Source of the DNA: Parasynechococcus marenigrum WH 8102
GTDB taxonomy: Bacteria > Cyanobacteriota > Cyanobacteriia > PCC-6307 > Cyanobiaceae
DNA: 32,000 nucleotides
Assembly (NCBI RefSeq): GCF_000195975.1
Contig: NC_005070.1
Coordinates: 390,001-422,000, forward strand
Reading direction: 5' to 3'
A program made the position numbers and the translations under genes. Of the stretch, positions 600 to 18,152 are shown piece after piece; positions within the stretch are counted from its first letter, which is position 1; every line of letters starts with the position of its first letter. The notes under the pieces were generated by a model that made no database searches, was not told the DNA's origin, and saw only the letters and a program-made list of their open reading frames with translations.

Positions 600-1651
600 G
601 GCAGCAACTCCTCCAGGCGGCGGATCAGGCGCGCGGCGCCGTCATGCACCCCCCAGCCCATGGACTGCAGCCAGGACGTGTTGACGGGTGGCACATCCAG
701 CAGTTGATCCAAGTGGTCGATCGACTGCAGGCGATGCATCAGTCCGCTGCCGAAGAACGTCGTTGTGCCTTGATCGGAGTGGATGCCGTAATCGCCGATG
801 AGCAGGGTTGGCCGGCCCCAGGCCATGGCGGTCAGGCTCCAGGGGGAGCTGACGCAGAGACAGGCACTGCAGCTAGCCAGCTGGGTCAAGAGCTGACCAG
901 GTGCACCAAACACCAGATTGTCGGGGAAGGTCCAATCGCTGGATTGGAACTTAGAGATCCAAGGCTGACCTTTCTCCCAGGCGTGGTCGCGTTGGATCAC
1001 AACCGACCACTCGGGGGACGTTTCGGCCCAGCGGATCAATTGCCGCAGCAACTGTGCTTTGGCACCGATCTGGGTGGGGATGGCCTCCTGAACCAAGGCG
1101 AGCAGGGTATGAGGTGGTTGTGGTGTTCCCCCATTGAGAGCTCCGAGGGGAGGACGTTCCGGAGAAAACCAATGCCCGATCGCCTCGATTGATGGACTGG
1201 CCACGCTCTCGGGCCAGAACTGTGTGATCGCTTCAAGCTCCCGTCGCTGACGATCTCCTGGCACCACCAACAGATCACAGCATTGGCTGTCGCATAGCTG
1301 ACGCACCAGGCTGTCGCCGAGGGAGGCCTGGAGAGGACCGCTGAACACCAGAGCTGGCCGCACACCACGCTGCCGTGCGAGGTCCCGGTGAGCATGGGTA
1401 AAGCGCTCAAGTTGGTCGCTGCGACGGATGAACAACCCAACGGCGCTGGCGGACTCCAACAGCTCATGGCCCAGCAGATCCATCAGGGTCAGTGGGATTT
1501 GCGGGGTGACGGAAGGCAGAGGGCTGTCTCGGCGTGAGGACAGTGCCGGTCCAATGGTCAGACAGGTCTGGCCGCAGCGTTCCAGCTGCTGTTGCAGCAG
1601 CTGGCAGGCCAGAGCGCTGCTGTCGTCATCACTGACCAGAAGGATCGTCAT
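596..1651 (-). CDS. Uncharacterised glycosyltransferase-like protein, paralog 2 (GT-B-like C-terminal half)
   Basis: This is ORF 596-1666. I prefer ATG at 1651 because it forms an ATGA overlap with the stop of the upstream gene (1648-1650). The resulting N-terminus MTILLVSDDDSSALACQLL matches paralog 3 (KLLLIGDSDSQLLACEAL). The C-terminal block LCVSSPWSLTAMAWGRPTLLIGDYG parallels ITVSSTAALEAMAMGVSTRIVGDLG of paralog 1. Confidence 0.65.
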   Translation of the reverse strand: MTILLVSDDDSSALACQLLQQQLERCGQTCLTIGPALSSRRDSPLPSVTPQIPLTLMDLLGHELLESASAVGLFIRRSDQLERFTHAHRDLARQRGVRPALVFSGPLQASLGDSLVRQLCDSQCCDLLVVPGDRQRRELEAITQFWPESVASPSIEAIGHWFSPERPPLGALNGGTPQPPHTLLALVQEAIPTQIGAKAQLLRQLIRWAETSPEWSVVIQRDHAWEKGQPWISKFQSSDWTFPDNLVFGAPGQLLTQLASCSACLCVSSPWSLTAMAWGRPTLLIGDYGIHSDQGTTTFFGSGLMHRLQSIDHLDQLLDVPPVNTSWLQSMGWGVHDGAARLIRRLEELLP

Positions 1652-2955
1652 CGCTCCCTTAGCCACCGAGACAACCAGCCGAAGCCCACCAGCCCATCGC
1701 GGAGTCGGCGCAGAAGGGTGCGGGTTTTATGCCGTTTTTGCTGGCTGGAGCGCGCGCCACCACTGCTGAGCATGCGGCGGCCGCCGTGACGGATGGCATA
1801 GGTCTGCCAGCTGCGGCTGCCCCAGCTGCCTGGTCCAAGGCCATCGGTTGGCAACGGGGGCCGGTCGCCATGCAGTTGTTTCAACAGGGCTGACAGAAAG
1901 ATCTCCTGCCCCTCGGGTTGGTGGCCGTGGCGTTGCAACCAGTCGACCTTGTGAACGGGTGTGAACGGGTCACGACAGATTGCGGCGAAGTCCGCAACGG
2001 CCCCTGATTCCGCAAAAAAGTGATTGCCCAGGGTCTCGGTGACACCGAGATCGCCAACGATGCGGGTGCTCACGCCCATGGCCATGGCCTCAAGGGCTGC
2101 CGTTGACGAGACGGTGATGGCGCAGCCGCATTGCCGCAGCAGCCGCGTGGCTGGCTTGAAACTGAGTTGCAGATTGGGGACCGTGTCACTCATACGCTCG
2201 ATCACACCAGCCATTTCGCCGTGGCGACGGTGCAGGGTGCTCTCGATGCTGGAGGTTCGCGGTTTGAAAATCACCGGATGATTGGGCCAGGCTTCCGCCA
2301 GCTCCTTGAGTTGCTTGCAGATGTAGCGCCGTTGCAGCGGATGGACCGGTATCGAGGGCTGCTCGAAGAACACAATCGATGGTTTGTCAGGCAAGGTTTG
2401 CTCGGATCTGGCGTTCCAGAGCAACGGCAGGCCCGTCACCACGGCGTTATCGCTGGACAGCCCCAGGGCCTCACGGCCGAGCCGATACTGGGCGAAATCC
2501 TGATCACTGTTGAGGCAAAGCAGGTCAGCGCCGGAACGATCCAGCATTCCCTCCAAGGCAAAGCGGAATAGCAGGCCTGGATAGGCACTGACCAGAACCG
2601 GGCGGTCCGTGCGGCGATGCCACTCCTTCGACAGCATCAGTAGCGCATCACGGCTGCGGAGACCGTCCAAACCCAGAATCAGAACATCGGTGTCACCGGC
2701 CATGGCGGCGGTGAGGCTGCGAAAGTCACCCCAAGCTCCCCTCTTAATCGTGGTGCGGCGGTCGGTGCGGCTGATCTCCAGGCGTTGGCGGCGAGAGAGA
2801 GCCCGGTTCGAGACCTGCAGCAGATGCAATGTCGTTTCAGCTCCCTCACGCCGGCAGGCGGCAAGCAAGGTCATGGCCACCTTGCCGAAGGAGTCGAAGC
2901 AGGCGACGGCGGCCACCTTTCTGCCGGAGAGGCGCTTATCGGCAGCGGGCGCCAT
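1648..2955 (-). CDS. Uncharacterised glycosyltransferase-like protein, paralog 1, with a basic C-terminal tail
   Basis: This is ORF 1648-2979 (TTG at 2979). ATG at 2955 gives MAPAADKRLSGRKVAAVACFDSFGK. The nucleotide-sugar-transferase-like C-terminal half reads IVFFEQPSIP...VIFKPRTS...ITVSSTAALEAMAMG. The gene lies directly downstream of the cytidylyltransferase on the same strand. The start is uncertain (2955 or 2979). Confidence 0.65.
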   Translation of the reverse strand: MAPAADKRLSGRKVAAVACFDSFGKVAMTLLAACRREGAETTLHLLQVSNRALSRRQRLEISRTDRRTTIKRGAWGDFRSLTAAMAGDTDVLILGLDGLRSRDALLMLSKEWHRRTDRPVLVSAYPGLLFRFALEGMLDRSGADLLCLNSDQDFAQYRLGREALGLSSDNAVVTGLPLLWNARSEQTLPDKPSIVFFEQPSIPVHPLQRRYICKQLKELAEAWPNHPVIFKPRTSSIESTLHRRHGEMAGVIERMSDTVPNLQLSFKPATRLLRQCGCAITVSSTAALEAMAMGVSTRIVGDLGVTETLGNHFFAESGAVADFAAICRDPFTPVHKVDWLQRHGHQPEGQEIFLSALLKQLHGDRPPLPTDGLGPGSWGSRSWQTYAIRHGGRRMLSSGGARSSQQKRHKTRTLLRRLRDGLVGFGWLSRWLRER

Positions 2956-2981
2956 CGTCGGGCTCCGGGAATTCGGCAAAA

Positions 2982-3694: not shown

Positions 3695-5680
3695 ATGATT
3701 CAGCGATTCGGGGTGCCGGAGATCGGTCTACTGGCCCATCGCACGGTGCCGGCGCTGCTGGCTCCGGCGCAGTTGCTGCCGGGCCGGCGGCGGGATGTGG
3801 AGGCGTTGCTGGCCTGGGGGCGACGCCCCAGTGCCCGGCGGGTGGAGTGCTTGGGTCGACGCTGGCAGCTGCCGGTGTGGCATCTCGAGGATGGTCTGCT
3901 GCGCTCCTTGGCCAAGGGCCGCCAGCACCCACCTCTGGCGTTGTTGGTGGATGACCTGGGGGTTCATTTCGATGCCACCCAGCCCAGCCGGATGGAGCAG
4001 CAGATTCAGCAACCGCTGACCCCTTCACAACACAACCGGGCTCGTGAACTTCAGCAGCGGTGGTGTGCTCAGCGGCTGAGCAAGCTCAACCCCGCCCGGG
4101 AATCACCGGCTCCAGCCGAGCCCTTTGTGCTGGTGGTGGACCAGTCCGCCGGCGACTGCTCCATCGGCCTCGGGCAAGCCGGGCCGGAGAGCTTCCGGTG
4201 CATGTTGCAGGAGGCGCTGCGGGATCAGCCGGACTGTCTGGTGGTGGTGAAGGTGCATCCGGATGTGATCCGGGGCCGCGCCCGGGGCCATTTCCGCCGG
4301 CGGGATCTGCAGCACCCGCGCATCCGCATCTGCGCTGACGGATTGCACCCTGCCGCCCTGTTGGAGCAGGCCCTGGCGGTGTATGTGGTGACCTCCCAGA
4401 TGGGCTTCGAAGCACTGCTGTGGGGGCGAACGGTCCACTGCTTTGGCATGCCCTTTTATGCCGGTTGGGGGCTGACCCATGATCGTCTTCCGGCTCCGGT
4501 CCGTCGGGTGCAGATGGTGCCCTTGGAAGCGCTGGTGCATGCGGCGCTGGTGGCGGGCACCCGTTGTGTGGATCCCCATCACCATCAGCCCTGCCCGATC
4601 GAAACGCTGATGGATGCCATCGGGCTGCAACGCCGCCTGCAGGGGGCGGATCCTCAGCGGGTGGAGGCCTTCGGGTTTACGCCCTGGAAGCAACGCAGCC
4701 TCAAGCGCTTTCTGGCCGGCAGTGAGCTGCGCTTCCGCCTGCCGCGGGCGTTGCCGGGGCCACGGGCGGAGGCTGTGGCGGTGTGGGGGCGGCGGGCGCG
4801 ACCACGCCTGCTGGCCACGGCGCGCCAACGGGCGCTGCCTGTGCTGCAGGTGGAGGACGGCTTCCTGCGTTCGGTGGGGCTGGGGGCGGATCTGATCGAT
4901 CCGATCTCCTGGGTGGTGGACCGCCGGGGGATGTATTACGACGCCACGGAGAGCAGCGATCTGGAACATCGGCTGGCAACAGTGCATTGGAATGAGGCCC
5001 AGTTGGAACGGGCTGAGGCCCTGCGCCAACAGCTGGTGGAGCAGGCGATCACCAAGTACAACCTGTCGGGAGATGGGTGGCAGCGCCCCAAGGGGGGCCG
5101 GCGGGTGGTGTTGGTGGTGGGCCAGGTGGAAAGCGACGCTTCAATCCGCTACGGCGCTCCCGGGATCACCACCAACCTTGCGCTGCTGGAGGCTGTTCGG
5201 GCCGCTGAACCGGAGGCTTTTCTGATTTACAAGCCCCATCCGGATGTGGTGGCGGGCCTCTGCCGCTCCGGGGAAGGGGAAGAGCGGGCTGGGCAGGTCT
5301 GCGATTGTCTGTTGGGCGATGGTTCGATCCATGCCCTGTTTGAGCAGGTGGATGCCCTGCATGTGCTCACCTCACTGGCGGGATTTGAGGCGCTGCTGCG
5401 GGGGGTGGAGGTGAACTGCTGGGGCCTGCCGTTTTATGCGGGTTGGGGTCTGACGAATGACCGGTTGTCGTCTCCTCGGCGGGGGCGGCCGCTGCCATTG
5501 GCGGCGTTGGTGCATGCCGCCTTGATTGATTACCCCCGCTACGTCAGCCGCCACAGCGGTTGGTTCATCACTCCAGAACAAGCCATCGAGGAGCTGGTGG
5601 CCTGGCGGGATGCACCTGCGGCTCCACGCACCCTGGTGCAGGCCCTGTTCCGCCACTGGGGGCGACTGCGCAGCCGCTGA
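3695..5680 (+). CDS. kpsC: Capsule polysaccharide biosynthesis protein KpsC (two-domain beta-Kdo transferase)
   Basis: The 661-aa product has an internal duplication typical of KpsC. The first half reads VVVKVHPDV...VTSQMGFEALLWGRTVHCFGMPFYAGWGLTHDRL. The second half reads LIYKPHPDV...LTSLAGFEALLRGVEVNCWGLPFYAGWGLTNDRL. The N-terminus (ALLAWGRRPSA...WHLEDGLLRSL) resembles E. coli KpsC. Confidence 0.9.
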   Translation: MIQRFGVPEIGLLAHRTVPALLAPAQLLPGRRRDVEALLAWGRRPSARRVECLGRRWQLPVWHLEDGLLRSLAKGRQHPPLALLVDDLGVHFDATQPSRMEQQIQQPLTPSQHNRARELQQRWCAQRLSKLNPARESPAPAEPFVLVVDQSAGDCSIGLGQAGPESFRCMLQEALRDQPDCLVVVKVHPDVIRGRARGHFRRRDLQHPRIRICADGLHPAALLEQALAVYVVTSQMGFEALLWGRTVHCFGMPFYAGWGLTHDRLPAPVRRVQMVPLEALVHAALVAGTRCVDPHHHQPCPIETLMDAIGLQRRLQGADPQRVEAFGFTPWKQRSLKRFLAGSELRFRLPRALPGPRAEAVAVWGRRARPRLLATARQRALPVLQVEDGFLRSVGLGADLIDPISWVVDRRGMYYDATESSDLEHRLATVHWNEAQLERAEALRQQLVEQAITKYNLSGDGWQRPKGGRRVVLVVGQVESDASIRYGAPGITTNLALLEAVRAAEPEAFLIYKPHPDVVAGLCRSGEGEERAGQVCDCLLGDGSIHALFEQVDALHVLTSLAGFEALLRGVEVNCWGLPFYAGWGLTNDRLSSPRRGRPLPLAALVHAALIDYPRYVSRHSGWFITPEQAIEELVAWRDAPAAPRTLVQALFRHWGRLRSR

Positions 5681-5700
5681 GGCGTGCCAGGATCTTCCCA

Positions 5701-7728
5701 GTGCTGTACGGCGATTTGGGCAGGGGACGGGCGCCGGCACTGGTGCAGGTGCGCATCGAAGGACCGGTTCTGCTGCTGATGGGCCCGATCGGGCTGTTCT
5801 TTGCCCGCTTCAGCCGATACCTGCAGGGATGCGGCATCCCTGTCACCAAGGTGCGTTTTCCTTTGCGGGAATTCGGCTTCCCTTCGGACGTGTGTGTGCC
5901 GTTTCAAGAGCCGATGAAGGCCTGGCGGCCCTTCCTGCGTCAGCTGCTGCAGGAGCGCGGCATCCGCCACATCTTCATGTATGGGGACTTCATCATTCCC
6001 CACCGGATTGCCATTGAAGAGGCCCAGGCGCTGGGGATTGAGGCCTGGGTGTTTGAGCTGGGTTATCTGAGGCCCAACTACGTGACCCTGGAGCGGGACC
6101 GGGTCAACGCCCGCTCCAACCTCAACCAACCCGCGGCCTTCTATCGCAACCTGCCACCGGTGGACCAGCTGCCACCAGACATCGTTCTGGATCCGGGCTG
6201 GCGCTGGCGCAAGGCCTGGAAGGCTCCCACCTTCATTCAACACGCCTTCACCCGCTACCCGATCATTGAAGGCGAGCACAAACTGCAGCCCACCCCGGGC
6301 TTCCTCTGGTGCCAGCTGCGCGGTAGCTGGCGTTACTGGCTGTACCGCTGGCAGGAGCGAAACCTGAAGCGGCGGCTGCTGGAGCACCTGTCCTTTTTTC
6401 TGGCGGTGCTGCAGGTGTCCAGTGATTCCCAGATCCAGCTGGGGTCGCCCTACCGCGGCATGCACGACTTCATCGAAGACGTGATCCGCTCCTTTGCGGC
6501 CCACGCCCACAGCTCCGACCATCTGGCCTTCAAGCACCACCCGCGGGATCGGGGCTACAACCACTACGGCAGCCTGATTGCTGTGCTGGCGCGCCGCTAT
6601 GGCGTCTGCGAGCGGGTGCATTACTTCCACGACGGGGCCCTCAGCCGTTACCTGCGCACCTGCCGTGGCGTGATCACGGTGAATAGCACGGTGGGCCTGC
6701 AGGCCCTGTTCCATGCGGTGCCCACCAAAACCATGGGCAACACCTTCTACAACCTTGAGGGGCTGACGGATCAGAAGCCTCTGGATGGCTTCTGGAGGGA
6801 CCCCCAGCCCAGTGACCGACCGCTGTTCTGGCGCTTCTACCACCACCTGGTGATGACCACCCAGGTGAACGGCAACTTCGATGGGGACTTTCCCTTCCGG
6901 ATCACCTTCCCGATCGGTCCAGAGGCTCGCCAGCTCGATCCGCTGCCGCAGTTGCAGCCGCTGCGGCCGCGGCCACGGTTGAACCCCCTGCTGCTGCCGG
7001 CCCGGGTGCTGGCTCGCCTGGGGTGGGCGGCCCTGGGGTTTGTTTTATACGGCCTGCAGCTGCCTGCGGTGCTGCTCCGCCGATCGGACTGGGCGGCTCA
7101 ACTGATGACCTGGGCTTCTGCTGTGGCGTTGAGGGCTCTCGGGGTGCAGGTGGTGGTGGACGACAGCCAGCCCAGTGAGCCGGCCGCGGTGCCACTGGTG
7201 CACATCTTCAACCACCGCAGCCCCTGTGATGGCCTTGTGATTCAGGGGGTGCTGCGCCTGCCGGGCATGACCACGGCACAGCTGCATCTGAAGTGGGTGC
7301 TGCCTGGCTATGCGGCCGCGGCACGCAATGCCGGCTCGGCCGTTCTCGATCATCGCCAGCCCAGTTCGCGGCTGGAGGGAATGATGCGGGCCTCCGCGTT
7401 GTTGCGCGACCACGGCCAGATCATGCTGGCCCCCAACGGCTCCCTGGTGACGCCGATTGAGCAGCGGGTCTCCCCCAGCGCCTGGATGCTGGCCCAGCAC
7501 TACAACGGTTGTGTGGTGCCCTGGCTGTTCCGCTACGACGGACTGGAAGGGGCCGTGGGAGCCAAGTACCGTCCTCTGGCGTTGCTGCTGAGCCGGTTGA
7601 CGGCTCCGCTGGGGACGATCCATTGCCGGCGGGGCCGGTCCCAGGATCTGGTTCTGCCGATGGATCCCCGAGACCGGGAGGGGTTCAGCCGGGCTGTGCA
7701 GGCGTACTACCAGCAAGCACAAGACTGA
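5701..7728 (+). CDS. kpsS: KpsS-like capsule biosynthesis protein (beta-Kdo transferase) fused to a C-terminal PlsC/OlsA-type lysolipid acyltransferase domain
   Basis: One uninterrupted frame runs 5560-7728. KpsS-like features include VLLLMGPIGLFFARF (compare the E. coli KpsS N-terminus LLLQGPMGPFF), FLAVLQVSSDSQI, FKHHPRDRG and VITVNSTVGLQALF. These are followed by a Pro-rich linker, a hydrophobic segment and acyltransferase motifs. The start is uncertain: GTG 5701, GTG 5743 or ATG 5779, all downstream of the kpsC stop at 5680. Confidence 0.85.
   Translation: MLYGDLGRGRAPALVQVRIEGPVLLLMGPIGLFFARFSRYLQGCGIPVTKVRFPLREFGFPSDVCVPFQEPMKAWRPFLRQLLQERGIRHIFMYGDFIIPHRIAIEEAQALGIEAWVFELGYLRPNYVTLERDRVNARSNLNQPAAFYRNLPPVDQLPPDIVLDPGWRWRKAWKAPTFIQHAFTRYPIIEGEHKLQPTPGFLWCQLRGSWRYWLYRWQERNLKRRLLEHLSFFLAVLQVSSDSQIQLGSPYRGMHDFIEDVIRSFAAHAHSSDHLAFKHHPRDRGYNHYGSLIAVLARRYGVCERVHYFHDGALSRYLRTCRGVITVNSTVGLQALFHAVPTKTMGNTFYNLEGLTDQKPLDGFWRDPQPSDRPLFWRFYHHLVMTTQVNGNFDGDFPFRITFPIGPEARQLDPLPQLQPLRPRPRLNPLLLPARVLARLGWAALGFVLYGLQLPAVLLRRSDWAAQLMTWASAVALRALGVQVVVDDSQPSEPAAVPLVHIFNHRSPCDGLVIQGVLRLPGMTTAQLHLKWVLPGYAAAARNAGSAVLDHRQPSSRLEGMMRASALLRDHGQIMLAPNGSLVTPIEQRVSPSAWMLAQHYNGCVVPWLFRYDGLEGAVGAKYRPLALLLSRLTAPLGTIHCRRGRSQDLVLPMDPRDREGFSRAVQAYYQQAQD
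7012..7728 (+). other. Domain: membrane-anchored 1-acylglycerol-3-phosphate/lyso-ornithine-lipid acyltransferase-like (LPLAT) module within the KpsS fusion
   Basis: The hydrophobic segment LARLGWAALGFVLYGLQLPAVLL lies at about 7012-7080. The HX4D motif NHRSPCD is at 7210-7230. An FPEGTR-like block, MLAPNGS, is at about 7423-7443. The preceding linker is PLPQLQPLRPRPRLNP. Confidence 0.7.
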
Positions 7729-8950
7729 TGTTGTGACCGCCAAAGCCGAAGGCGTTTTTGAGCAAGAGCCGTTGGCCTTGATCTGAAGACAGCTGCACAG
7801 GGCCCTGGTTGGCCACCGCCAGCTCCACCTCCGGATCCAGGGGATCGGCGTTGAGGCTGCCGGGCAGTACGCCGAGGCGCAGAGCCTGCAGGGCCAGGAT
7901 GGTTTCCACCGCTCCGGCGCCCCCCAGCAGATGGCCGAGCTGGCCTTTGGGGGCGCAGACCGGCAGATGATCGGCGGCGCTGCCGAGGCTGCGCCGCAAT
8001 GCTCTGGCCTCCGCCAGATCGCCGAGGCTGGTGCCGGTGGCATGGGCCTGAACGCCACAGAGGTCCGAGGGGCTCACATCCGCCCGGCGCAGGGCATCAT
8101 CAATGGCACGGCTGGCCTGCAGCCCCTGGGGTTCGGGGGCGACGATGTGATGGGCATCGCTGCTGCTGCCGCTGGCCAGCAACCAACCCAGATCAGCTCC
8201 TGCTGGCGTATCCCGCTGGCGCATCAGGGCCAGGACCCCGGCACCTTCGGAGAGCACGAAGCCATCTCGACCGAGGCCGTAGGGCCGGGAGGCCTGATCG
8301 GGGGCATCGTTGCGGCTGGAGAGGGCGCGCATGGCGGCAAAGCCCACCAGCCCCAGTCGATTCACCGGTGCTTCGCTGCCCCCGGCCAGCACCAGATCGG
8401 CGCGGTCGTCGTTGAGCAGCATCTGGCCCAGCATCAATGCTTCGGCGCCGGAGGCGCAGGCTGACACCGGGGTGTGGGCACCGCCGAGCAGACCCAGCTC
8501 AATGGCAACCTGGCCAGCGGCGGCATCCGGAATCAGCATCGGCACGGTGAGGGGGTTCACCCGGCTTGGTCCACCCGTGCTGAGTTGCGTGTGCTGATCG
8601 TGCATGGTGGCGAGTCCGCCGATGCCGGTGCCGATGACCACGGCGATGCGACTGGGATCGAGCCCTTGGGTGATGGGACCGGTCATGGCCCAGGCCTGCC
8701 GGGCGGCCACCAGGGCGAGCTGGGCACAGCGATCGGAGCGGCGGCGGAGCAGGGGCGGCAGGCTGTCGAGGGCACCCGTTGGGACGCAACCGGCCAGTCG
8801 CACGGGTAAATCCTCGCTCCAGGGAGCCTGCAGGGTCTGAATGCCACTGTGGCCGGCGATCACCGCATCCCAGGTGCTGTTTGCATCGGCTCCAAGGGGG
8901 TTGAGGGAACCCCACCCCACCACTGCTGCTGGTTCAGCTCTGAGAGCCAT
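7685..8950 (-). CDS. Beta-ketoacyl-ACP synthase, KAS I/II type (FabF-like, locus-dedicated copy)
   Basis: The active-site Cys context is PVSACASGAEAL. The His motifs are VQAHATGTSLGD and KGQLGHLLGGAGAVE. The C-terminus is NAFGFGGHNISLVL. I place the start at ATG 8950 (MALRAEPAAVVGWGS), which overlaps the ACP stop by 17 nt. The ORF-track start at 8998 would overlap by 65 nt. Confidence 0.9.
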   Translation of the reverse strand: MALRAEPAAVVGWGSLNPLGADANSTWDAVIAGHSGIQTLQAPWSEDLPVRLAGCVPTGALDSLPPLLRRRSDRCAQLALVAARQAWAMTGPITQGLDPSRIAVVIGTGIGGLATMHDQHTQLSTGGPSRVNPLTVPMLIPDAAAGQVAIELGLLGGAHTPVSACASGAEALMLGQMLLNDDRADLVLAGGSEAPVNRLGLVGFAAMRALSSRNDAPDQASRPYGLGRDGFVLSEGAGVLALMRQRDTPAGADLGWLLASGSSSDAHHIVAPEPQGLQASRAIDDALRRADVSPSDLCGVQAHATGTSLGDLAEARALRRSLGSAADHLPVCAPKGQLGHLLGGAGAVETILALQALRLGVLPGSLNADPLDPEVELAVANQGPVQLSSDQGQRLLLKNAFGFGGHNISLVLAGSTPAQPG

Positions 8951-9215
8951 CGCTCCGGCGGGGACTAAGGGATTCCAGGTGCTGCTGGATGTCCGCAACG
9001 GTGCGGAACCGGAGTAGTTCCTCCTCCTTGATCCGGATGCCGAAGTTGGTGTCCGCCTCGATCAGGATTTCGTAGAACCCCAGGGAATCAATCCCCACGT
9101 CCTCCATCAAACGAGCATCCGGGGTGATCAGAGCTGGATCGGCGCCGGAGATGCGGTGCAGGATCTCGATCAGCTGTCCCTGCAGCTCTTGCTTGTCAGG
9201 GCAGCTCTCTCCCAA
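8934..9215 (-). CDS. Acyl carrier protein (phosphopantetheine attachment Ser in DSLGFYE)
   Basis: The 93-aa acidic product has GIDSLGFYEILIEAD, a classic DSL motif at an ACP-like position. The TTG start at 9215 is preceded by an SD-like AAGAGG (plus-strand cctctt at 9223-9228) with a 7-nt spacer. Confidence 0.85.
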   Translation of the reverse strand: MGESCPDKQELQGQLIEILHRISGADPALITPDARLMEDVGIDSLGFYEILIEADTNFGIRIKEEELLRFRTVADIQQHLESLSPRRSDGSQS

Positions 9216-9260
9216 CGCACAGCCTCTTGATGAATAGTAAAAGTACCAGTGTTGGTGGTA

Positions 9261-10172
9261 TTACTCGTCGCCTCGGTACCAGCTGAAGCGTTGGTAGACG
9301 GGTTGGTGGGGCAGGTCGATGAACAGGGCGAGCCGTTCTGGAGGCAGCAGCCTCAGGTCGGCGACCATCAAGATTTCAGTGATGTGGTTAAAGTCCAGCG
9401 CAAGAGAAAGATCACAGACCTCCGCTTGCATCAGATTGACGTACTGACGCAGCAGCACCGGCAAGCGGAAATCGTCAGAGAGAGTTTCGCGGATCTCCTG
9501 TTCAAGGGCCTGAATGTGGCCGCTGGGATGGGGGGTGTCATCGGCGCGAATGCCTGGGACGGGATGGCGTGGGGCCGGCAAGCGGGCGTCGCAACGCCGG
9601 TAGGGGGGACGCAGCAGGGCGCTGAGAAAGGCGGCGTTCACCGCATCGCTGTGGGCGAAGTGGTTGTAAGACACCAACCCGTGCAACAGCTGGTATCCAC
9701 TGCGGGCAGCGATCAGCAGACCGCCTCTGAACAGGGCCATCAACGAGTGAGGCTGGCGTTGAAAGCGTTCCGCCAGGGCGACCCTGCCGATCTCGAGGTG
9801 GTTGGTGCGGCTGGCCAGGTCAGCCTTGATGCCGGGATAGACGTGTTCGAGGTAGGAGCCGCTGCTGCCGGGTAAGGAGCTGGCGCCAACGGGAATGAAT
9901 TGCAGGCGGGCGGAGCCGGCGAGGTCGCCGCTGCTGCGTTCCACGAGCAGCAGATGGTCGTAATGGGGATCACGGCCATCGAGGTCACGCTCGTCTCCCG
10001 ACCCGGACAACTGCTTGCGATAGGTCGATTCCCGCAGCTGTCCCACGGCATCGGCCACAGCATCAAAGGCGTTGCCTGCGATCAGATGCAGATCGAGGTC
10101 ATCAATCGTGAGTAAGCGTGTTTCCGTCGACGAGGCCACGACGGAGGGGATGGACGGACCAGACAGCGTCAT
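9261..10172 (-). CDS. GNAT-fold N-acyltransferase of the OlsB / hemolysin-like (Acetyltransf_5) family
   Basis: HLEIGRVALAERFQ resembles the ELGRxxV core of the family. The C-terminal block LPVLLRQYVNLMQAEVCDLSLALDFNHITEILMVADL resembles the conserved PPLLKxYLRLGAxxxGxPxxDxxFxTxDxxxL block of OlsB-type enzymes. It is the first gene of a three-gene minus-strand operon with ACP and KAS. This is a recognition-level call, not a search result. Confidence 0.7.
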   Translation of the reverse strand: MTLSGPSIPSVVASSTETRLLTIDDLDLHLIAGNAFDAVADAVGQLRESTYRKQLSGSGDERDLDGRDPHYDHLLLVERSSGDLAGSARLQFIPVGASSLPGSSGSYLEHVYPGIKADLASRTNHLEIGRVALAERFQRQPHSLMALFRGGLLIAARSGYQLLHGLVSYNHFAHSDAVNAAFLSALLRPPYRRCDARLPAPRHPVPGIRADDTPHPSGHIQALEQEIRETLSDDFRLPVLLRQYVNLMQAEVCDLSLALDFNHITEILMVADLRLLPPERLALFIDLPHQPVYQRFSWYRGDE

Positions 10173-10248
10173 CCTTGTACCTAACTGTCTCAGTCTGCGG
10201 GCAGATTAGACCAACTTCTTTGAGCCTTTTGAGCTAATCACTGCCTTC

Positions 10249-11340
10249 ATGCCTTCCTCTTTGCGTCTCGCTTCTTTGGTCTGCACCCCGCTGATTGCCG
10301 GACTGGCGGCTGTTGCAGCGTCCTTGGCGGTGGTTCCGATGAAGGCCAGTGCTGAACCATTGGCGCTGGCCACTGGCGCAGCCAGCGTTGGGCGTGAGGC
10401 TTTCCGCTATCGACTGGGGCCTGGAGACAGCCTGGTGATGTCGGTGTTCAAAATGAGCGGTTACGAGGCCAATGTGAAGGTGCTGAGCGATGGCACCATC
10501 AACCTGCCGCGGATCGGCACGGTTGAAGTGTGGGGGCTGACGCTGGAGGAAGCGCGCCTGAGGATCACTGCCGCCTACGAGGTCTTTCTGCGCCGGCCGA
10601 TCGTCTACCTCGATCTGGTGACCTCCCGCCCGGTGAAGGTCACGGTGACCGGTGAAGTGGAGCGGCCGGGGGTGTTCAGCCTGCCGACCCAGGCGGAGGG
10701 GGGCTGGCCGACGCTGGTGGATGTGGTGCAGAAAGCTGGTGGTGTGACAGCGAGTGGTGATCTGTCTCGTATTGAGGTGCTGCGACCTGCCGCACGCCCC
10801 GGTGGCTCGATGCGTCGTTATCAGTTCGACTACCTCACGGTGCTGCGCAAGGGGGGGCATGCCCCGAATCCGCTGATTTACGACGGCGACAGCATTCGCT
10901 TGTACAAAAACGATGGCGTCAACAATGCTGACTTGATCACCACGGCGGCCTCCAACTTCGCTCCCGACATGATCCGCGTGAATGTGATTGGTGAGGTGGC
11001 CAAGCCGGGCGTCCAGCAGGTGCCATCCAATGCGCCGTTGTCCCAGGCGATCTTCGCGTCAGGGGGAATCACCCGCCGCGGCAGCATCAGCACAGTGGAA
11101 TTGGTGCGTGTGGATGGCGACGGTGAGCCAACTGTTGCGGTGATGAGCTTTGATCCCAGCGCCGTGCTGAGCAGCCCGACCAACCCACCGCTCCGTCAAG
11201 GAGATGTGATTGTGGTGAACCGCACAGCCTTGGCCAAGGTGGCCGATGGATTGACCGATGCCTTCTCGCCACTGACGCCGATCGTGAATGCGGCATCGAT
11301 TTTCCGGATCCTTGGCTTGCCCTCAGTGATTGGCAACTGA
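10249..11340 (+). CDS. Polysaccharide export protein, Wza/KpsD family (Poly_export plus SLBB-like repeats), with a signal peptide
   Basis: The N-terminal signal-like sequence is MPSSLRLASLVCTPLIAGLAAVAASLAVVPMKASA. The Poly_export core is YRLGPGDSLVMSVF...DGTINLPRIGTVEVWGLTLEEARLRI. SLBB-like blocks include VTVTGEVERPGVFSL and VNVIGEVAKPGVQQV. Confidence 0.85.
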   Translation: MPSSLRLASLVCTPLIAGLAAVAASLAVVPMKASAEPLALATGAASVGREAFRYRLGPGDSLVMSVFKMSGYEANVKVLSDGTINLPRIGTVEVWGLTLEEARLRITAAYEVFLRRPIVYLDLVTSRPVKVTVTGEVERPGVFSLPTQAEGGWPTLVDVVQKAGGVTASGDLSRIEVLRPAARPGGSMRRYQFDYLTVLRKGGHAPNPLIYDGDSIRLYKNDGVNNADLITTAASNFAPDMIRVNVIGEVAKPGVQQVPSNAPLSQAIFASGGITRRGSISTVELVRVDGDGEPTVAVMSFDPSAVLSSPTNPPLRQGDVIVVNRTALAKVADGLTDAFSPLTPIVNAASIFRILGLPSVIGN

Positions 11341-11365: not shown

Positions 11366-12661
11366 TCAGATCCCCAGTCGCTCCCAGATCACGCCGAGAT
11401 TGGCCTGATGCAGTTCGGTACTGAAGCAGTCCGCCAGCTGATCGGCTGACAGCCGACTGGTGACATCCGCGTCGGCTTCCAGGTTGGCGCGGAAATCACC
11501 GCCTTCATGGTTCCAGGCGGTGTGGGCGTTGCGCTGCACGATCCGATAGGCCTCTTCTCGGCTCATGCCGGTGCCCACCAGGGCCAGCAGCACCCGCTGG
11601 CTAAATACCACGCCGCCGTAGACGTTCATGTTGCGGCGCATGTTGTCGGGATAGACGCCAAGACCCTTCACCACGCTGGTCATCTCCCGCAGCATGAAAT
11701 GAAGGGTGACGGAACAGTCCGGCAGCATCATCCGTTCGGTGGAGCTGTGGCTGATGTCGCGCTCGTGCCAGAGGGCAACGTTTTCCAGGGCTGCCACTAC
11801 ATAGCTGCGCAGCACCCGTGCCAGGCCGCTGATCCGTTCGCTGCGGATCGGGTTGCGCTTGTGGGGCATGGCGGAGCTGCCCTTCTGGCCCTTGGCGAAG
11901 TTCTCCTCCACCTCGAGCACATCGGTGCGCTGCAAGTTGCGGATCTCCGTCGCGAAGCGGTCGAGGGAGGCGCCCACCAGGGCCAGGGTCTGCACATAGT
12001 CGGCATGGCGATCGCGGGAAATCACCTGGCTGCTGGCGGTATCCGGCGTCAGTCCGAGGATTTCACAGGTGATGGCTTCCACCTGGGGGTCGGTGTTGGC
12101 GTAGGTGCCCATGGCCCCACTGATCTGCCCAATGGCCACCTCTTCTTCCAGCCGCGCCAGGCGGCTGCGGTTGCGTTCGGTTTCCGCCAGCCAGCCGGCG
12201 ATCTTGAAGCCAAAGGTAATCGGCTCCCCATGAATGGCATGGGAACGGCCGATCATTTCGGTGGCTTTGTGCTCGCGGGCCAACGCCCGTAGGGCGTCGG
12301 CCAAGGCATCCAACTCCAGGCGGAGCAGGGCCACGGACTGTTTCAGCTGCAGCGCCAGGCCGGTGTCCAACACATCGCTGCTGGTCAAGCCCACATGGAT
12401 GTGACGGCCGGCATCACCGACGTGTTCGTTCACGTTGGTGAGGAAGGCGATCACGTCGTGGCGCACTTCCGCTTCGATCTCGAGGATCCGCTCCACGGAG
12501 AAGTGGGCCTTGGCTTTGATTGTGTCCAGGGCGTCTTGGGGAACACGGCCGAGGCGGCAGTTGGCTTCCGTGGCGGCGATCTCCACATCCAGCCAGCTCT
12601 GGAATTTCGCCTGCTCACTCCAGACGGCTCCCATTTCAGGCAGGGTGTAACGCTCGATCAC
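11366..12661 (-). CDS. purB: Adenylosuccinate lyase
   Basis: The N-terminus is IERYTLPEMGAVWSEQAKFQSW. The fumarate-lyase signature is GSSAMPHKRNPIRSE. Similarity is full-length. The start is GTG at 12661 (giving the usual M-IERYT N-terminus) or GTG at 12679 as in the ORF track. Confidence 0.95.
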   Translation of the reverse strand: MIERYTLPEMGAVWSEQAKFQSWLDVEIAATEANCRLGRVPQDALDTIKAKAHFSVERILEIEAEVRHDVIAFLTNVNEHVGDAGRHIHVGLTSSDVLDTGLALQLKQSVALLRLELDALADALRALAREHKATEMIGRSHAIHGEPITFGFKIAGWLAETERNRSRLARLEEEVAIGQISGAMGTYANTDPQVEAITCEILGLTPDTASSQVISRDRHADYVQTLALVGASLDRFATEIRNLQRTDVLEVEENFAKGQKGSSAMPHKRNPIRSERISGLARVLRSYVVAALENVALWHERDISHSSTERMMLPDCSVTLHFMLREMTSVVKGLGVYPDNMRRNMNVYGGVVFSQRVLLALVGTGMSREEAYRIVQRNAHTAWNHEGGDFRANLEADADVTSRLSADQLADCFSTELHQANLGVIWERLGI

Positions 12662-12712
12662 CGGACGACGCGGATGCACAACCTGCTGACTCTATGCAGT
12701 GGTCGAAACCAT

Positions 12713-12761: not shown

Positions 12762-13415
12762 TCAGGCGTCAAACTTGACCCACTTGGGAGCTTCTTCGAG
12801 GTTCTTGGTGGTGAAGGTATCATCGCCAACAACCAAAGTGTCCTTCTTGTTGAAGTCGGAAAGAACAAGCTTGCCCTTGCCTTTTTTATCAGTAACTTCA
12901 ATTACGTCTTTACCTTTGCCAGAAATAACGGTAGTTTTTCCTTTCAACGTGCCGCTAAAAGTAATAGTGTCACGACCTTTTCCTGTAGAAATAGCTGCAG
13001 CTTTGAGGGTAGAGTCAGCGCCAAACGAAATGGAATCTTCTGCCTTGCCCTTTGCGGTAGTGATAGAAGGCTTCAATAACTTACCTTCCTTGGCGGTAAA
13101 TTCGATAGCACCTTTGCCAGTAGAAGTTATTTCGAGACTTGCGGCTTTTGTGACAGAGAGGGTGATGTTCGCTGTCTTTCCTTTAGGAGCTTCGTTGATA
13201 AATGAAGCATTTGTAAGACGTGATCCAGTAATCTCAGTTTTTTCCTCACCCTTGAGCCCAAGATTGAGACCTTCAATAGGTGATGAAATGGTGATTTCAC
13301 TTGATACACCATCTTCAGACGCGATTACTTCGATTTTGCCAGCATCGGCTTCATCGACGACAATAACGTTGGAAATAACATCGTCTTGGACGACGGACGG
13401 TATGGTGGTCGCCAT
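12762..13415 (-). CDS. Small secreted-type repeat protein (KGK / GKGxD-I-x-F repeats, no signal peptide, no Cys), in a low-GC islet
   Basis: The product is 217 aa with an ATG start. About seven KGK-initiated beta-strand-like repeats are visible: KGKTANITLSV, GKGAIEFTA, KGKAEDSISFG, GKGRDTITFSG, GKGKDVIEVT, KGKGKLVLSDF. The C-terminal VLSDFNKKDTLVVGDD resembles the xDFxxxxDxLxL ends of RTX-type exoproteins. The strand was chosen from terminator polarity and motif periodicity. Confidence 0.7.
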   Translation of the reverse strand: MATTIPSVVQDDVISNVIVVDEADAGKIEVIASEDGVSSEITISSPIEGLNLGLKGEEKTEITGSRLTNASFINEAPKGKTANITLSVTKAASLEITSTGKGAIEFTAKEGKLLKPSITTAKGKAEDSISFGADSTLKAAAISTGKGRDTITFSGTLKGKTTVISGKGKDVIEVTDKKGKGKLVLSDFNKKDTLVVGDDTFTTKNLEEAPKWVKFDA

Positions 13416-13602: not shown

Positions 13603-14811
13603 TCAGGTCACGACTTGCTCACGAACCCTCTGAAACAGCTGCTCGTAGCCCTCCATAGCCTTGCTGAGGCCTCCGTGGCGTTCGATCCAGCTCCGCCCGG
13701 TGGCTCCCAAGGTGCGAGCCTGCTGAGGTTGCTCAAGCAACTCAATCATCCGGTTGGCTAGGCCCTCGGCGTCGTTGAACGGCACCAGCGCCAGGGCGTC
13801 TGTGGCCTCCTTGTGCAACTCCACCGCGATCGGGCTGTCGGGGTTGCTGATGATCGGAGCTGAGCAGGCTAGGGCCTCCAGCACACTCCACGACAAGGTG
13901 TAGGGGTAACTCAGGGCCACATGGCAGGCGCTGCACTGCAGCAGCGTCAACATCGCTGCGTGGGGGAGTGGCCCCAGGTGATGGATCTGCTCGCGATTTA
14001 GCGTGTCCGGCAGTTGCTCCAGGGCATCGACAAAGTGGTCTTCACCCTTTGGCGGTTGCAGGCCATATCCCTGACCCGTGCCGCCCACCAGCACAAGCTG
14101 TGCCTCCGGCAGGGCCAGGCTGACGAGGGGCCAGGCCTTCAGCAGTTGCCGCAAGCCGCGGAGGGGTTCGAGGTCGCGGGAGATGAAGGTCACCAGCGGT
14201 TGGCCGGCCCTGAACTCAAGGGCCTGTTCGGGAAGCTCCAGGCAGGCGTTTGGATCTGGCATGATCCGTTCGAGATCAACGCCTTCCGGCAGCAGGGTCA
14301 GGCGCTGCTGCAGGTCCGGCGGAAAGCTGAGGAGCTGGCTGCGGCTGGCCACCACGGCTGCGGATGACTGGAACACGGCCAGTTCGGCAATCAGGTTGGC
14401 ACTGCTGAAGCTGGTGGCGTCCGGCTCAAACCCGTCGAGATCCTGATCAAACCCGAAGCCAAGGGAGCGGGAATTGCCCCATAACTCCGGGTAGCTGATC
14501 AAGGGCACATCCCCGCAGACGCGCTGCAGGCAGAGGGCTTCTCCCCAGGCGCTGTGGCTCATCACCAAATCGGGTGGATGCTCCTGATCCAGAAGCTGCT
14601 CGACCAACCTGGCGACCGCCAGCCCTCGTTGCAGTTGGGATGGCGCCTGTTCAAAGCAGTATTGCAAATAGGTGAGGCCCTGCCACTGCAGACCGCTCGG
14701 TGCCTCCGCCATTGATCCAATGGCTGTGACCTGATGCCCGGATGCCAGCCAGGCCGGTGCTAGATCACGGAATTGGCCCGGAAAATTCTGGTGGATCAGC
14801 AGCAGATGCAT
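13603..14811 (-). CDS. Glycosyltransferase, GT4 / group 1 family (GT-B fold)
   Basis: The N-terminus MHLLLIHQNFPGQFRDLAPAWLASGHQVTAIGS is typical of one GT4 subfamily. The C-terminal donor-binding block is ALSYPYTLSWSVLEALACSAPIISNPDSPIAVEL (EX7E-like). Confidence 0.85.
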   Translation of the reverse strand: MHLLLIHQNFPGQFRDLAPAWLASGHQVTAIGSMAEAPSGLQWQGLTYLQYCFEQAPSQLQRGLAVARLVEQLLDQEHPPDLVMSHSAWGEALCLQRVCGDVPLISYPELWGNSRSLGFGFDQDLDGFEPDATSFSSANLIAELAVFQSSAAVVASRSQLLSFPPDLQQRLTLLPEGVDLERIMPDPNACLELPEQALEFRAGQPLVTFISRDLEPLRGLRQLLKAWPLVSLALPEAQLVLVGGTGQGYGLQPPKGEDHFVDALEQLPDTLNREQIHHLGPLPHAAMLTLLQCSACHVALSYPYTLSWSVLEALACSAPIISNPDSPIAVELHKEATDALALVPFNDAEGLANRMIELLEQPQQARTLGATGRSWIERHGGLSKAMEGYEQLFQRVREQVVT

Positions 14812-16625: not shown

Positions 16626-16890
16626 GGAACTCCTTCCACACCAGCCAGTACACCAGCCAGCCCACAGGGGGCACCAGCAGCAGGGGCATCAAGGCGAAGA
16701 CCGTGATGACGGGTTGTCCCACCAGCAGCGGCATGGACCACACAAGTAAATAAACGACAACGGTGAAGCTGACGCGTTGCCGCCGCCCCCCCAGCCAGGC
16801 TTTGAGACGCTGCAGCTTGAGCGCCAAACGTGCGGTTCTGGTTCGTCGTTCAGGGGGAAGGTGATGCCAGAACGGGTGGGGAGATTGCAT
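16618..16890 (-). CDS. Small membrane protein (90 aa, basic N-terminus plus two predicted TM helices)
   Basis: The product is MQSPHPFWHHLPPERRTRTARLALKLQRLKAWLGGRRQR followed by VSFTVVVYLLVWSMPLLVG and VITVFALMPLLLVPPVGWLVYWLVW. An ATGA overlap with the HlyD stop lies at 16890. Its position and coupling in the operon support that it is a real gene. Confidence 0.6.
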   Translation of the reverse strand: MQSPHPFWHHLPPERRTRTARLALKLQRLKAWLGGRRQRVSFTVVVYLLVWSMPLLVGQPVITVFALMPLLLVPPVGWLVYWLVWKEFHD

Positions 16891-18152
16891 CAGCGCATCC
16901 GCTCGAGGCCGCGGCGTTTGTCATCCAGCAGATCGGTGATGGCCGAGATGAAGCGACGGTCTCTGAGGTGGATGTCGGCAGTGAGACTCATGCCCGGTTG
17001 CAGCGGCACCGAGCGTTGGCCCAACTGGAGCGATTGTCGCTGGAGTTTCAACACGGCTGGAAAGTACAGCCCCTGCGCCTCCTGCCCCAATTCCCGCCGT
17101 TGCTCATCTGGAGTTAGGGCATCGGATCCAACCCGCTCCACCGTCGCGGGCAGATAGGCAAAGTCACTGGCCTTGAACGCGTTGAGTGAGATGTCTGCCC
17201 GTTGATTGGTTCCCACGAAGCCGATGGCGTCATTGGGAATGAACACCTTGGCCTGCAGATCGTTCTGTGGAACCAACTTGAGCAATGGCTTGGGTTCCGT
17301 GTTCGGGTCGATGACGCTGCCGGCACTCACAGTGATGTCGAAAACCACGGCATCGATTGAGGCGCGTAGTTCAATGCGGGAAAGGCGCACGTCCGCTGCC
17401 CGGATCTTGCGGTCGAGCTCGGCGATGCTGCGCAGGTTCTGTTCAATTTCGCTGCGCATCACGGCCATGCTGCCGGCATTGGCGGCCCGATGGTTGGCGG
17501 TCAAGCTCGCCAGTTCCCGTTGCAGGGCATCCAGTTCGGTGCTGAGGTCATCCACATTGGAGCGAGCGCTGAGGGCTTGCAGTTCGCTGGTGGCTCCGTC
17601 CTCCAACAACAGTTGATAGCTCTCGGCGATCGTTTCGGCGGTCACCAGTGATCGCTGCAGCCCTGCAATCCGAACGCGGGTGCGCTGCTCGGCTTCCCGC
17701 TGGGCTGTCCTGACGCCTGACCGTTGTTCTCGCAGCTGTTGCAACAGGTTCAGCTGGTTGGGGGTGAGGTCTTCTTCAGGCCGTTCACCCAGCAGGACAC
17801 GGTTGATGATGATTTTGTTGTGCAGTGCTTCGCGTTGGATGCGGGCGGCATTCAGCTGAGCCTTGGTTTCGCGCGGATCAAAGCGCAACAGCAGATCGCC
17901 GGCCTTCACCGCTTGGCCTTCCTGCACCAGCACGCTGTCCACCACGCCCGGCAGAGCTGCCTCCACATCTTGGATGGCCTGTGTCGGTTGAAGCTTTCCT
18001 TGCACGGCCACCGTTTCCGGTAGCGGCGCGAGAAAAGCCCAGAGCGTGGCGAAGGTTGTGGTCCCCACCAGGGTCCACACCAGCACGGAGGAGTTCCGCC
18101 GGGTTTTGCGCAGAAGCACTGGTTGGTTGAAGCTCCAGGGCTTGTTCTCCAT
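16890..18152 (-). CDS. HlyD-family type I secretion membrane fusion (periplasmic adaptor) protein
   Basis: After ATG 18152 comes the N-terminal TM segment SSVLVWTLVGTTTFATLWAFLAP. The lipoyl-like hairpin is VQGKLQP...GVVDSVLVQEGQAVKAGDLLLRFD. A long coiled coil and a beta-barrel domain follow. The ATG at 18152 shares its A with the TGA of the ABC gene. The ORF-track extension to 18353 was rejected. Confidence 0.9.
   Translation of the reverse strand: MENKPWSFNQPVLLRKTRRNSSVLVWTLVGTTTFATLWAFLAPLPETVAVQGKLQPTQAIQDVEAALPGVVDSVLVQEGQAVKAGDLLLRFDPRETKAQLNAARIQREALHNKIIINRVLLGERPEEDLTPNQLNLLQQLREQRSGVRTAQREAEQRTRVRIAGLQRSLVTAETIAESYQLLLEDGATSELQALSARSNVDDLSTELDALQRELASLTANHRAANAGSMAVMRSEIEQNLRSIAELDRKIRAADVRLSRIELRASIDAVVFDITVSAGSVIDPNTEPKPLLKLVPQNDLQAKVFIPNDAIGFVGTNQRADISLNAFKASDFAYLPATVERVGSDALTPDEQRRELGQEAQGLYFPAVLKLQRQSLQLGQRSVPLQPGMSLTADIHLRDRRFISAITDLLDDKRRGLERMR

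Follow-up and report, generated by a model that had tools for sequence, protein, structure and literature searches.

A KpsS–acyltransferase fusion and an aminolipid-type N-acyltransferase as a candidate lipid-end module of picocyanobacterial capsule loci

The genome of Parasynechococcus marenigrum WH 8102 carries, within the 32,000-nucleotide stretch analysed here (NC_005070.1, positions 390,001 to 422,000, referred to below as the window), a plus-strand gene of 675 codons at positions 5701 to 7728 that joins a KpsS-like glycosyltransferase domain to an acyltransferase (AT) domain of the lysophospholipid acyltransferase (LPLAT)/PlsC fold. This gene converges on a minus-strand operon whose first gene encodes a GNAT N-acyltransferase from the OlsF-C/GlsB/OlsB superfamily. 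What is observed comprises the domain families, the fold and catalytic motifs that are intact, together with a strict co-inheritance of KpsS, AT and GNAT, either fused or as adjacent genes. We read this arrangement, from its sequence, as a module for the lipid end of the capsule within a group-2-like locus of the ABC-transporter type, in which GNAT and AT would be a dedicated lipid-building pair, adding first an N-acyl and then an O-acyl chain, that is coupled to priming by KpsS and KpsC; we give this reading somewhat better than even chances. It suggests a lipid anchor for the capsule that picocyanobacteria make, or remodel, for themselves.

Capsules made by KpsS and KpsC are thought to have one conserved terminus, (lyso)phosphatidylglycerol-Kdo, where Kdo is a ulosonic acid. 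A KpsS that is hard-wired to an acyltransferase and accompanied by an aminolipid-type N-acyltransferase, in the most abundant marine phototrophs, offers a natural system for the formation of the lipid end of a capsule. The original prediction, made from the DNA of the window, knew of no characterisation of this fusion and arrangement, and literature searches on KpsS and acyltransferases, in cyanobacteria and in connection with lyso-phosphatidylglycerol, gave no description of it. Acyltransferases go unmentioned in a survey of Kps proteins across the whole cyanobacterial phylum (PMC4594306).

Co-inheritance of KpsS, the acyltransferase and GNAT

The loci were surveyed from two separate anchors, the fusion and GNAT, and the counts cover those contigs that were long enough to judge. 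GNAT is carried by every fusion-anchored contig (54/54) and AT by every GNAT-anchored contig (61/61), and AT was never found apart from kpsS in the contigs examined. The nearest relatives of the window sequence are marine Synechococcus genomes and metagenome-assembled genomes (MAGs). The fusion architecture is full length, at about 630-710 aa and 49-95% identity, in all 120 of the 120 protein clusters listed, and is present in 34 species-level genomes that include one complete chromosome (L031, CP138939).

Three types of locus can be told apart by their layout. Type I, which dominates the GNAT-seeded metagenome scan and is found in marine Synechococcus, in some Cyanobium and in the window itself, consists of kpsC, kpsS::AT, a convergent operon for a beta-ketoacyl-ACP synthase (KAS), an acyl carrier protein (ACP) and GNAT, then wza and a purB-like gene. 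Type II occurs in other picocyanobacteria and runs from kpsE-kpsT-kpsM through kpsC and kpsS::AT directly into GNAT, a GT4-like gene and wza, within other flanks and with no genes for ACP or KAS; its fusion is about 50% and its GNAT about 35-40% identical to the window proteins. Type III is represented by a Prochlorococcus-like TARA contig of 29.7% GC (L122, 1-18348) that encodes, in order, kdsB/C, kdsD (kpsF), kdsA, kpsC, kpsS, AT, a convergent GNAT, a GT4-like glycosyltransferase, wza, kpsM, kpsT, kpsE(-like) and a GT2, and seems to form a complete capsule locus of the group 2 type in Prochlorococcus; at 90% identity its AT clusters with a 252-aa protein from a Prochlorococcus MAG.

In the type III contig kpsS (410 aa) and AT (252 aa) are separate genes, with AT placed one base past the kpsS stop. 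The AT and GNAT of this contig are 25% and 28% identical to those of the window, and HX4D and PSGS are kept. Such a pair of split genes is, on comparison of the sequences, Rosetta-stone support for a functional link between KpsS and AT and not the sign of an artefact. The position of kpsC upstream of the fusion is kept in all related loci, and the wza-type export gene beside GNAT is common to all three locus types. The polymer genes differ between the types, with DUF6716 and NeuB genes in type I; types II and III have GT2 together with WsaF-like or epimerase genes. The trio of KpsS, AT and GNAT persists through deep divergence and rearranged surroundings.

The original prediction asked whether the fusion co-occurs with a triad of OlsB-like N-acyltransferase, ACP and KAS. 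It does so throughout with the N-acyltransferase, but ACP and KAS are absent from type II and type III loci; they were rejected as core parts on this ground and are, by locus comparison, best described as lineage-specific accessories. A contig labelled as a Mesorhizobium carmichaelinearum MAG (L026, CALRKZ020000004.1) also holds a cyanobacterial locus, with a fusion of 63% identity and with KAS, ACP, GNAT and wza, and is probably misbinned.

The AT motifs are missing from 11 of 117 fusion homologs. Eight loci with a fused AT that has lost HX4D and PNGS were inspected (L030 6753-9705; L039 8001-10673; L040 864-3549; L041 1852-4560; L051, L072, L105 and L109), and all eight have an intact standalone AT of about 250 aa directly downstream, with N-terminal helices, HX4D and PNGS of its own. 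Because an intact standalone AT accompanies every inspected degenerate fused AT, the sequences indicate that AT activity is selected or needed at the locus and is able to act in trans. Four loci (L009, L013, L014 and L089) have an extra standalone AT paralog, with HX4D in both copies. The fused, split and degenerate-plus-standalone variants constitute ready-made genetic controls.

The fusion protein and its convergent operon

The open frame of the fusion spans 5560 to 7728 on the plus strand. Its start is likely the GTG at 5701, 20 nt past the kpsC stop codon (5678-5680), and the 675 residues counted from there equal the length of the closest homologs at 100% coverage. The original prediction described a single frame for a KpsS domain, a Pro-rich linker, a hydrophobic helix and an acyltransferase with the motifs NHRSPCD and APNGS, together with a 44-nt overlap between its 3' end and that of a minus-strand GNAT-ACP-KAS operon. 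All of this is borne out, the overlap lying at 7685-7728 between the fusion and the KAS gene, and the profile searches that it called for (Capsule_synth, PF01553, Acetyltransf_5, PP-binding and ketoacyl-synt) gave matches above the Pfam gathering scores for the fusion, KAS, ACP and GNAT alike.

The KpsS-like domain occupies approximately residues 1-405 (5701 to 6915, plus strand) and matches Pfam Capsule_synth over profile positions 3-309 of 310 (3.8e-54). It scores 6.2e-82 and 276 bits on the NCBIfam KpsS model NF050054, under the cut-off of 600, and is by sequence a divergent homolog of KpsS. In Foldseek comparisons its model resembles KpsC (6mgd, 8fux), the WbbB beta-Kdo transferase and other GT-B proteins. 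A Pro-rich disordered linker follows at approximately residues 406-430 (6916 to 6990, plus strand), with seven Pro among the 28 residues 405-432, and residues 416-426 are the sole internal stretch of the AlphaFold model with a predicted local distance difference test score (pLDDT) below 50. The model of the whole fusion, built on a 43-sequence alignment, has a mean pLDDT of 82.9. Sequence searches of the PDB with GNAT, the AT domain and the KpsS domain gave nothing usable.

The AT domain (6991 to 7728, plus strand) matches PF01553 at 8.6e-7 and 29.3 bits against a gathering score of 23, so that the C-terminal domain does belong with the LPLAT models, as had been proposed. It opens with two membrane-interface helices, at residues 431-458 and 462-479 of the model, the first of borderline transmembrane hydropathy (1.63). 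The domain is modelled with confidence (pLDDT about 85-94) and superposes on the whole of Thermotoga maritima PlsC (5kym), including the two-helix N-terminus, over 258 columns (Foldseek E 2.4e-5, TMt 0.60). PlsC sits in the cytoplasmic leaflet by means of a comparable two-helix N-terminus. The HX4D motif is intact as NHRSPCD at 7210-7230, and of its catalytic residues His505 is kept in 106 and Asp510 in 115 of 117 full-length homologs. Motif III of the window protein, at 7429-7443, reads APNGS and not the canonical FPEGT(R); family-wide the block is [AF]P[NS]GSL.T.I..R ([AF]P[NS]GSLVTPI), and PEG is found only in marginal outgroup matches.

A phmmer search of 1.84 billion representative proteins with AT returned 64 matches at E<=1e-3 and 45 at E<=1e-10. 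Besides fusions and fragments they include standalone forms of about 200-265 aa and, at the very margin, a handful of canonical LPLATs, and the few family members with a named source come from Synechococcus, Cyanobium or Prochlorococcus. The view of AT as a housekeeping PlsC was rejected, as the family has only 64 members and is always in this locus. Curated models place the domain less clearly. The window AT scores 12 bits on the TIGR00530 AGPAT model against a cut-off of 102.95, although this is the model matched by most members of the family (22/24). It gives no match to the NCBIfam OlsA equivalog models, and the standalone paralog of L013 reaches 17 bits on the OlsA model against a cut-off of 300. 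Of five marginal canonical LPLAT matches that were scored, two (P0448 and P0443) score best on OlsA models, below cut-off, and three on AGPAT. NCBIfam scoring does not discriminate between an OlsA-like and a PlsC-like AT.

GNAT (9261 to 10172, minus strand) matches Acetyltransf_5 (PF13444) at 5.4e-11, with 43.5 bits against 22.4, and aligns with positions 304-567 of the 570-position OlsF model at 1.8e-15, with 56.5 bits against a cut-off of 620. Across 45 aligned members of its family, all 45 match the N-acyltransferase half of OlsF, 18 match GlsB and 7 match OlsB; the best E-values are 2.8e-19, 5e-9 and 4e-6, respectively, and no score comes close to a curated cut-off. By sequence the only recognisable family-level relatives of GNAT are aminolipid N-acyltransferases. 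Homolog searches with GNAT retrieved picocyanobacterial orthologs only and give no measure of whether the family occurs outside this context. The GNAT model (pLDDT 88.3, predicted TM-score (pTM) 0.87) is nearest in fold to EsaI, FeeM, BjaI and the GNAT loading domain of CurA, of which the first three are acyl-ACP- or acyl-CoA-dependent N-acyl transferases and the last is malonyl-CoA-binding. The nearness of the modelled fold to the acyl-ACP-using EsaI and FeeM is suggestive of an enzyme that could N-acylate an amino acid with a 3-hydroxyacyl chain from ACP. EsaI, the nearest of these in structure, uses 3-oxoacyl-ACP.

The other two genes of the operon encode ACP (8934 to 9215, minus strand; Pfam PP-binding 3.6e-10) and a FabF-like KAS paralog (7685 to 8998, minus strand; ketoacyl-synt 2.8e-42 and Ketoacyl-synt_C 2.3e-28). 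The DSL motif and the Cys-His-His triad earlier ascribed to them are both present. In ACP the motif GIDSLG contains Ser44 (codon 9084-9086), and the protein may be considered specialised because it misses every NCBIfam ACP equivalog cut-off. In KAS the triad is formed by Cys181 (8456-8458), His319 (8042-8044) and His356 (7931-7933), which align with Thermus FabF (1j3n). With 375.7 bits on the TIGR03150 fabF model, under the cut-off of 493.75, KAS is by this measure a FabF paralog and not the housekeeping enzyme. The annotated start of the KAS gene is overlapped by the ACP gene, and an alternative start at ATG 8950 is possible.

Formation of the lipid end and alternative explanations

GNAT and AT are read as an aminolipid-type pair because acyloxyacyl-aminolipid pathways are marked by just such a pairing of an N-acyltransferase with a PF01553 O-acyltransferase; in the known pathways the two always go together, as OlsB/OlsA, as GlsB/GlsA or as the halves of OlsF (PMC12971839). 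OlsB uses 3-hydroxyacyl-AcpP, and both OlsB and OlsA take acyl-ACP donors (PMC12971839). OlsF shows that N- and O-acyltransferase activities can be fused to other domains. Unlike in these systems, the picocyanobacterial O-acyltransferase is fused to a glycosyltransferase and not to the N-acyltransferase, and the pair lies inside a capsule locus; motif III has departed from FPEGT, the OlsF score of 56 bits falls far short of 620, and picocyanobacteria have no known aminolipid product. The labels OlsA-like and OlsB-like that had been attached to the pair stand at the level of the superfamily, but with no curated OlsA, OlsB or OlsF cut-off reached they describe only a possible mode of working.

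For the pathway itself we infer the order of the steps, the acyl donor, the amine acceptor and the identity of the product as the capsule anchor. GNAT would take its acyl chain, probably a 3-oxo- or 3-hydroxy-acyl group, from an acyl carrier protein. Where the locus has a KAS and an ACP of its own (type I), one condensation of an acyl primer with malonyl-ACP by this KAS, on this ACP, would give a 3-oxoacyl chain, and that chain, or the 3-hydroxyacyl chain formed after housekeeping reduction, would be the donor for GNAT; in types II and III a housekeeping acyl-ACP would take this place. The amine that GNAT acylates would most likely be the alpha-amino group of an amino acid, and the product a mono-acyl ('lyso') lipid, to which the PlsC-fold AT, anchored by its two N-terminal helices at the cytoplasmic face of the inner membrane, would add a second, ester-linked chain. 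Through the tether to KpsS this lipid could pass directly to KpsS and there accept the first ulosonic-acid (Kdo) residue, or could be acylated just after that Kdo has been attached. KpsC would then extend the linker, polymer-specific transferases would build the glycan and the Wza/KpsD protein would carry it across the outer membrane. From the cytoplasmic acyl donors and the two-helix hairpin or interfacial anchor of the model, both catalytic domains should act on the cytoplasmic face.

The ABC-transporter-dependent capsules of E. coli (group 2) and of Neisseria have part of this arrangement in common. Homologs of KpsC and KpsS are again adjacent with an outer-membrane polysaccharide export protein (OPX) alongside, relatives of the window carry kpsM, kpsT, kpsE and CMP-Kdo genes within the locus, and the model of the KpsS domain resembles the KpsC and WbbB beta-Kdo transferases. 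Classical group 2 loci, however, encode no acyltransferases and use bulk phosphatidylglycerol as the acceptor (PMC11041684, PMC10148158), whereas here KpsS is fused or adjacent to a PlsC-fold AT and accompanied by an aminolipid-type GNAT. The window KpsS is also far under the NCBIfam KpsS cut-off (276 against 600 bits) and, unlike in group 2, kpsMTE are not in the window.

Precedents for a dedicated lipid end come from capsules of other kinds. The Vi antigen of Salmonella Typhi and of Burkholderiales is likewise an ABC-transporter capsule whose reducing terminus comes from a locus-encoded dedicated acyltransferase, VexE, which is needed for Vi export and surface retention (PMC8760489, PMC12220298). 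The Vi systems have no kpsS or kpsC and a diacyl-HexNAc (diacyl-N-acetylhexosamine) terminus, whereas the loci described here have both genes, with acyltransferases of other subfamilies. In the rkp-1 region (rkpA-J) of Sinorhizobium, fatty-acid-synthase-like genes are tied to the K-antigen capsule and were proposed to make or modify a specific lipid carrier (PMC4881576), a proposal that is reportedly that of Kiss et al. in 1997. The rkp-1 region uses a large protein like type I fatty-acid or polyketide synthases and is not known to have a KpsS-LPLAT fusion or an OlsB-like GNAT. RkpJ is a KpsS homolog, RkpF an ACP and RkpG acyltransferase-like; a literature search linking rkpJ with KpsS returned nothing. 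The VexE and rkp-1 systems are precedents for dedicated capsule lipid ends, and neither has the present architecture. A further analogy to the ACP, KAS and AT of type I loci is the rhizobial AcpXL/FabF-XL/LpxXL system, in which an envelope-lipid acyltransferase receives its special acyl chain by way of a private ACP and dedicated KAS paralogs, but that system acts on lipid A and includes dehydratase and reductase genes that are absent here.

A more specific version of the preferred reading is that Prochlorococcus, Synechococcus and Cyanobium start a Kdo-primed capsule not on phosphatidylglycerol but on an N-acyl (acyloxyacyl) amino-acid lipid that contains no phosphorus and is produced in place by the KpsS-coupled GNAT/LPLAT pair. 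A phosphorus-free aminolipid anchor is plausible, and we take this version as a whole to be possible but less likely than not. Capsule anchors of two kinds, phosphatidylglycerol-Kdo and the diacyl-HexNAc of Vi, would be joined by a third, which would also be the first glycosylated aminolipid anchor. If the anchor is locus-specific or phosphorus-free, the assumed universality of the phosphatidylglycerol-Kdo terminus would change and the aminolipid enzymes would gain a new role; grazing, phage adsorption and aggregation in low-phosphate oceans would then have to be viewed in the light of a different picocyanobacterial surface chemistry.

Several points weigh against a dedicated aminolipid-type pair coupled to capsule priming. 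By sequence, neither acyltransferase reaches a curated OlsA, OlsB, OlsF or PlsC cut-off, and with no canonical Glu in motif III the acceptor of AT is not readable from its residues. The acceptor of E. coli KpsS is phosphatidylglycerol (PMC10148158, PMC11041684), and the present data do not point to any other. Ornithine lipids have not been identified in cyanobacteria, and the OlsB homologues there are found mainly in Nostocales, according to a 2026 aminolipid review (PMC12971839). The evidence for linkage all comes from one clade, the picocyanobacteria, so that shared ancestry inflates the counts. The model of the fusion has a pTM of 0.57, at which the geometry between its domains is unreliable. 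There is also no detectable homolog of KpsM, KpsT or KpsE anywhere in the window, nor in type I loci at up to 10 kb from the fusion; the OPX gene is present in the window, and kpsM, kpsT and kpsE stand beside kpsC in type II and III loci.

One alternative is a conventional phosphatidylglycerol anchor. The fused AT would then only re-acylate lyso-phosphatidylglycerol, or Kdo-lyso-phosphatidylglycerol, next to KpsS, and so supply or repair a scarce acceptor or set the acyl composition of the terminus, and some separate product would come from GNAT, alone or together with ACP and KAS. PlsC, whose fold AT has, is a lysophospholipid acyltransferase, and the AGPAT model is the one that 22 of 24 AT family members match. 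E. coli capsule termini have been described as '(lyso)phosphatidylglycerol' (PMC10148158, PMC7694667), and phosphatidylglycerol is a known substrate of KpsS (PMC11041684). This explanation nevertheless leaves the co-inheritance of GNAT and AT (61/61 and 54/54, in three layouts) unexplained, the acceptor-side FPEGTR block has been replaced by [AF]P[NS]GS in the whole family, and the AGPAT model gives the window AT only 12 bits where 103 are required. We consider it unlikely, although it is the foremost of the alternatives.

It is distinctly improbable that GNAT and AT instead decorate the glycan, for example by attaching an unusual acyl group from the private ACP to the nitrogen of an amino or nonulosonic sugar and by O-acylation of a sugar hydroxyl. 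The PseF-like cytidylyltransferase of the locus and the NeuB fusion of relatives do suggest a polymer with N-acylated nonulosonic acids, and some enzymes of the wider LPLAT superfamily acylate sugars, such as mycobacterial PatA. However, a complete change of polymer genes from one locus type to another leaves GNAT and AT in the company of kpsS, kpsC and wza; AT moreover has membrane helices of the PlsC type, and all detectable relatives of GNAT acylate free amino acids to form lipids.

Still less probable is an ordinary phosphorus-sparing pathway for bulk membrane aminolipids that happens to lie beside the capsule genes, with a fusion to KpsS of no mechanistic meaning. The low-phosphate water in which these picocyanobacteria live speaks for it. 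So does the resemblance of the pair to OlsB/OlsA or GlsB/GlsA (PMC12971839). Against it, no ornithine lipids have been identified in cyanobacteria (PMC12971839). Hitch-hiking is hard to reconcile with a translational fusion in more than 100 protein clusters, with an adjacency maintained down to 25-28% identity and with an AT that never departs from kpsS. Finally, although high-GC DNA yields many long spurious open reading frames and kpsS and AT are split genes in L122, an assembly or frameshift artefact or a set of chance frames is ruled out by the E-values, by domains that all exceed the Pfam thresholds, by confident models of both domains, by an arrangement conserved as a whole in dozens of genomes and by the same full-length architecture of 650-700 aa in 34 independent genomes, including the complete chromosome, and in more than 100 protein clusters.

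Donor sugar, polymer genes and the surrounding window

The GC content of the region of interest is about 0.60-0.69. Directly 5' of the fusion gene lies the kpsC-like gene (3695 to 5680, plus strand), which encodes 661 aa with two Capsule_synth modules (Pfam 2.3e-78, four matched stretches). Divergent from kpsC is a gene for a PseF-like CMP-sugar synthetase, or cytidylyltransferase (2982 to about 3659, minus strand), with matches to Pfam CTP_transf_3 (1.6e-20) and to NCBIfam PseF (9.8e-36), the KdsB models being weaker. The description of the glycan as Kdo-primed, which formed part of the original prediction, can thus be kept only in part: the window has no kds genes and its cytidylyltransferase is PseF-like, but kdsA, kdsB and kdsD are present in the locus in two relatives, L027 and L122. 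In the type I locus of L027 (5731-7853), kdsA and a kdsB-kdsC fusion are inserted between the cytidylyltransferase gene and kpsC, which supports Kdo as the donor sugar in the family. Homology together with the in-locus kds genes of L027 and L122 points to Kdo as the transferred sugar.

Two putative glycosyltransferase genes of the DUF6716 family (596-1666 and 1648-2979, minus strand; Pfam 4.7e-17 and 4.9e-58) are probably the polymer-specific part of the locus. Relatives have a third DUF6716 copy, and the three paralogs may be polymerases. Upstream of DUF6716, relatives (L031 253-3436; L039 1-1472) have genes for a Sulfotransfer_2 protein and for a CBS-NeuB-SAF-AP_endonuc_2 fusion of 768 aa. 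A nonulosonic acid is thus a probable constituent of the polymer, which may also be sulfated.

On the other side of the operon, and divergent from GNAT, is the gene for the Wza/KpsD-type OPX protein (10249 to 11340, plus strand; Pfam Poly_export, SLBB and SLBB_2), followed by an open reading frame at 11366-12679 (minus strand) that we take, from sequence alone, to be purB. An Rfam scan of the window and a scan of 7400-10400 for promoters and terminators gave nothing informative. Between 12730 and 13434 the GC content drops to about 0.51, and a repetitive, Gly/Lys/Thr-rich open reading frame of 217 aa (12762-13415, minus strand) is mirrored there by a plus-strand frame of 234 aa; no Pfam match there exceeds its cut-off, the only one being Lipid_bd at E 0.004.

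Further into the window, at 16890-21022, a HlyD-family adaptor adjoins a 956-aa ABC exporter with an N-terminal cyclic-nucleotide-binding domain, and the two look like a type I secretion pair within a region of glycan genes. A further block of glycan genes (13603-14811 and 21068-29303) comprises two GT4 genes, a GT2, an RgpF-like gene, a HEAT-repeat protein and a possible AlgX-like SGNH protein, and may represent a second surface-polysaccharide pathway in the same island. The window also encodes a 487-aa open reading frame with no family match (29261-30724) and a GNVR-domain protein (30702-31991).

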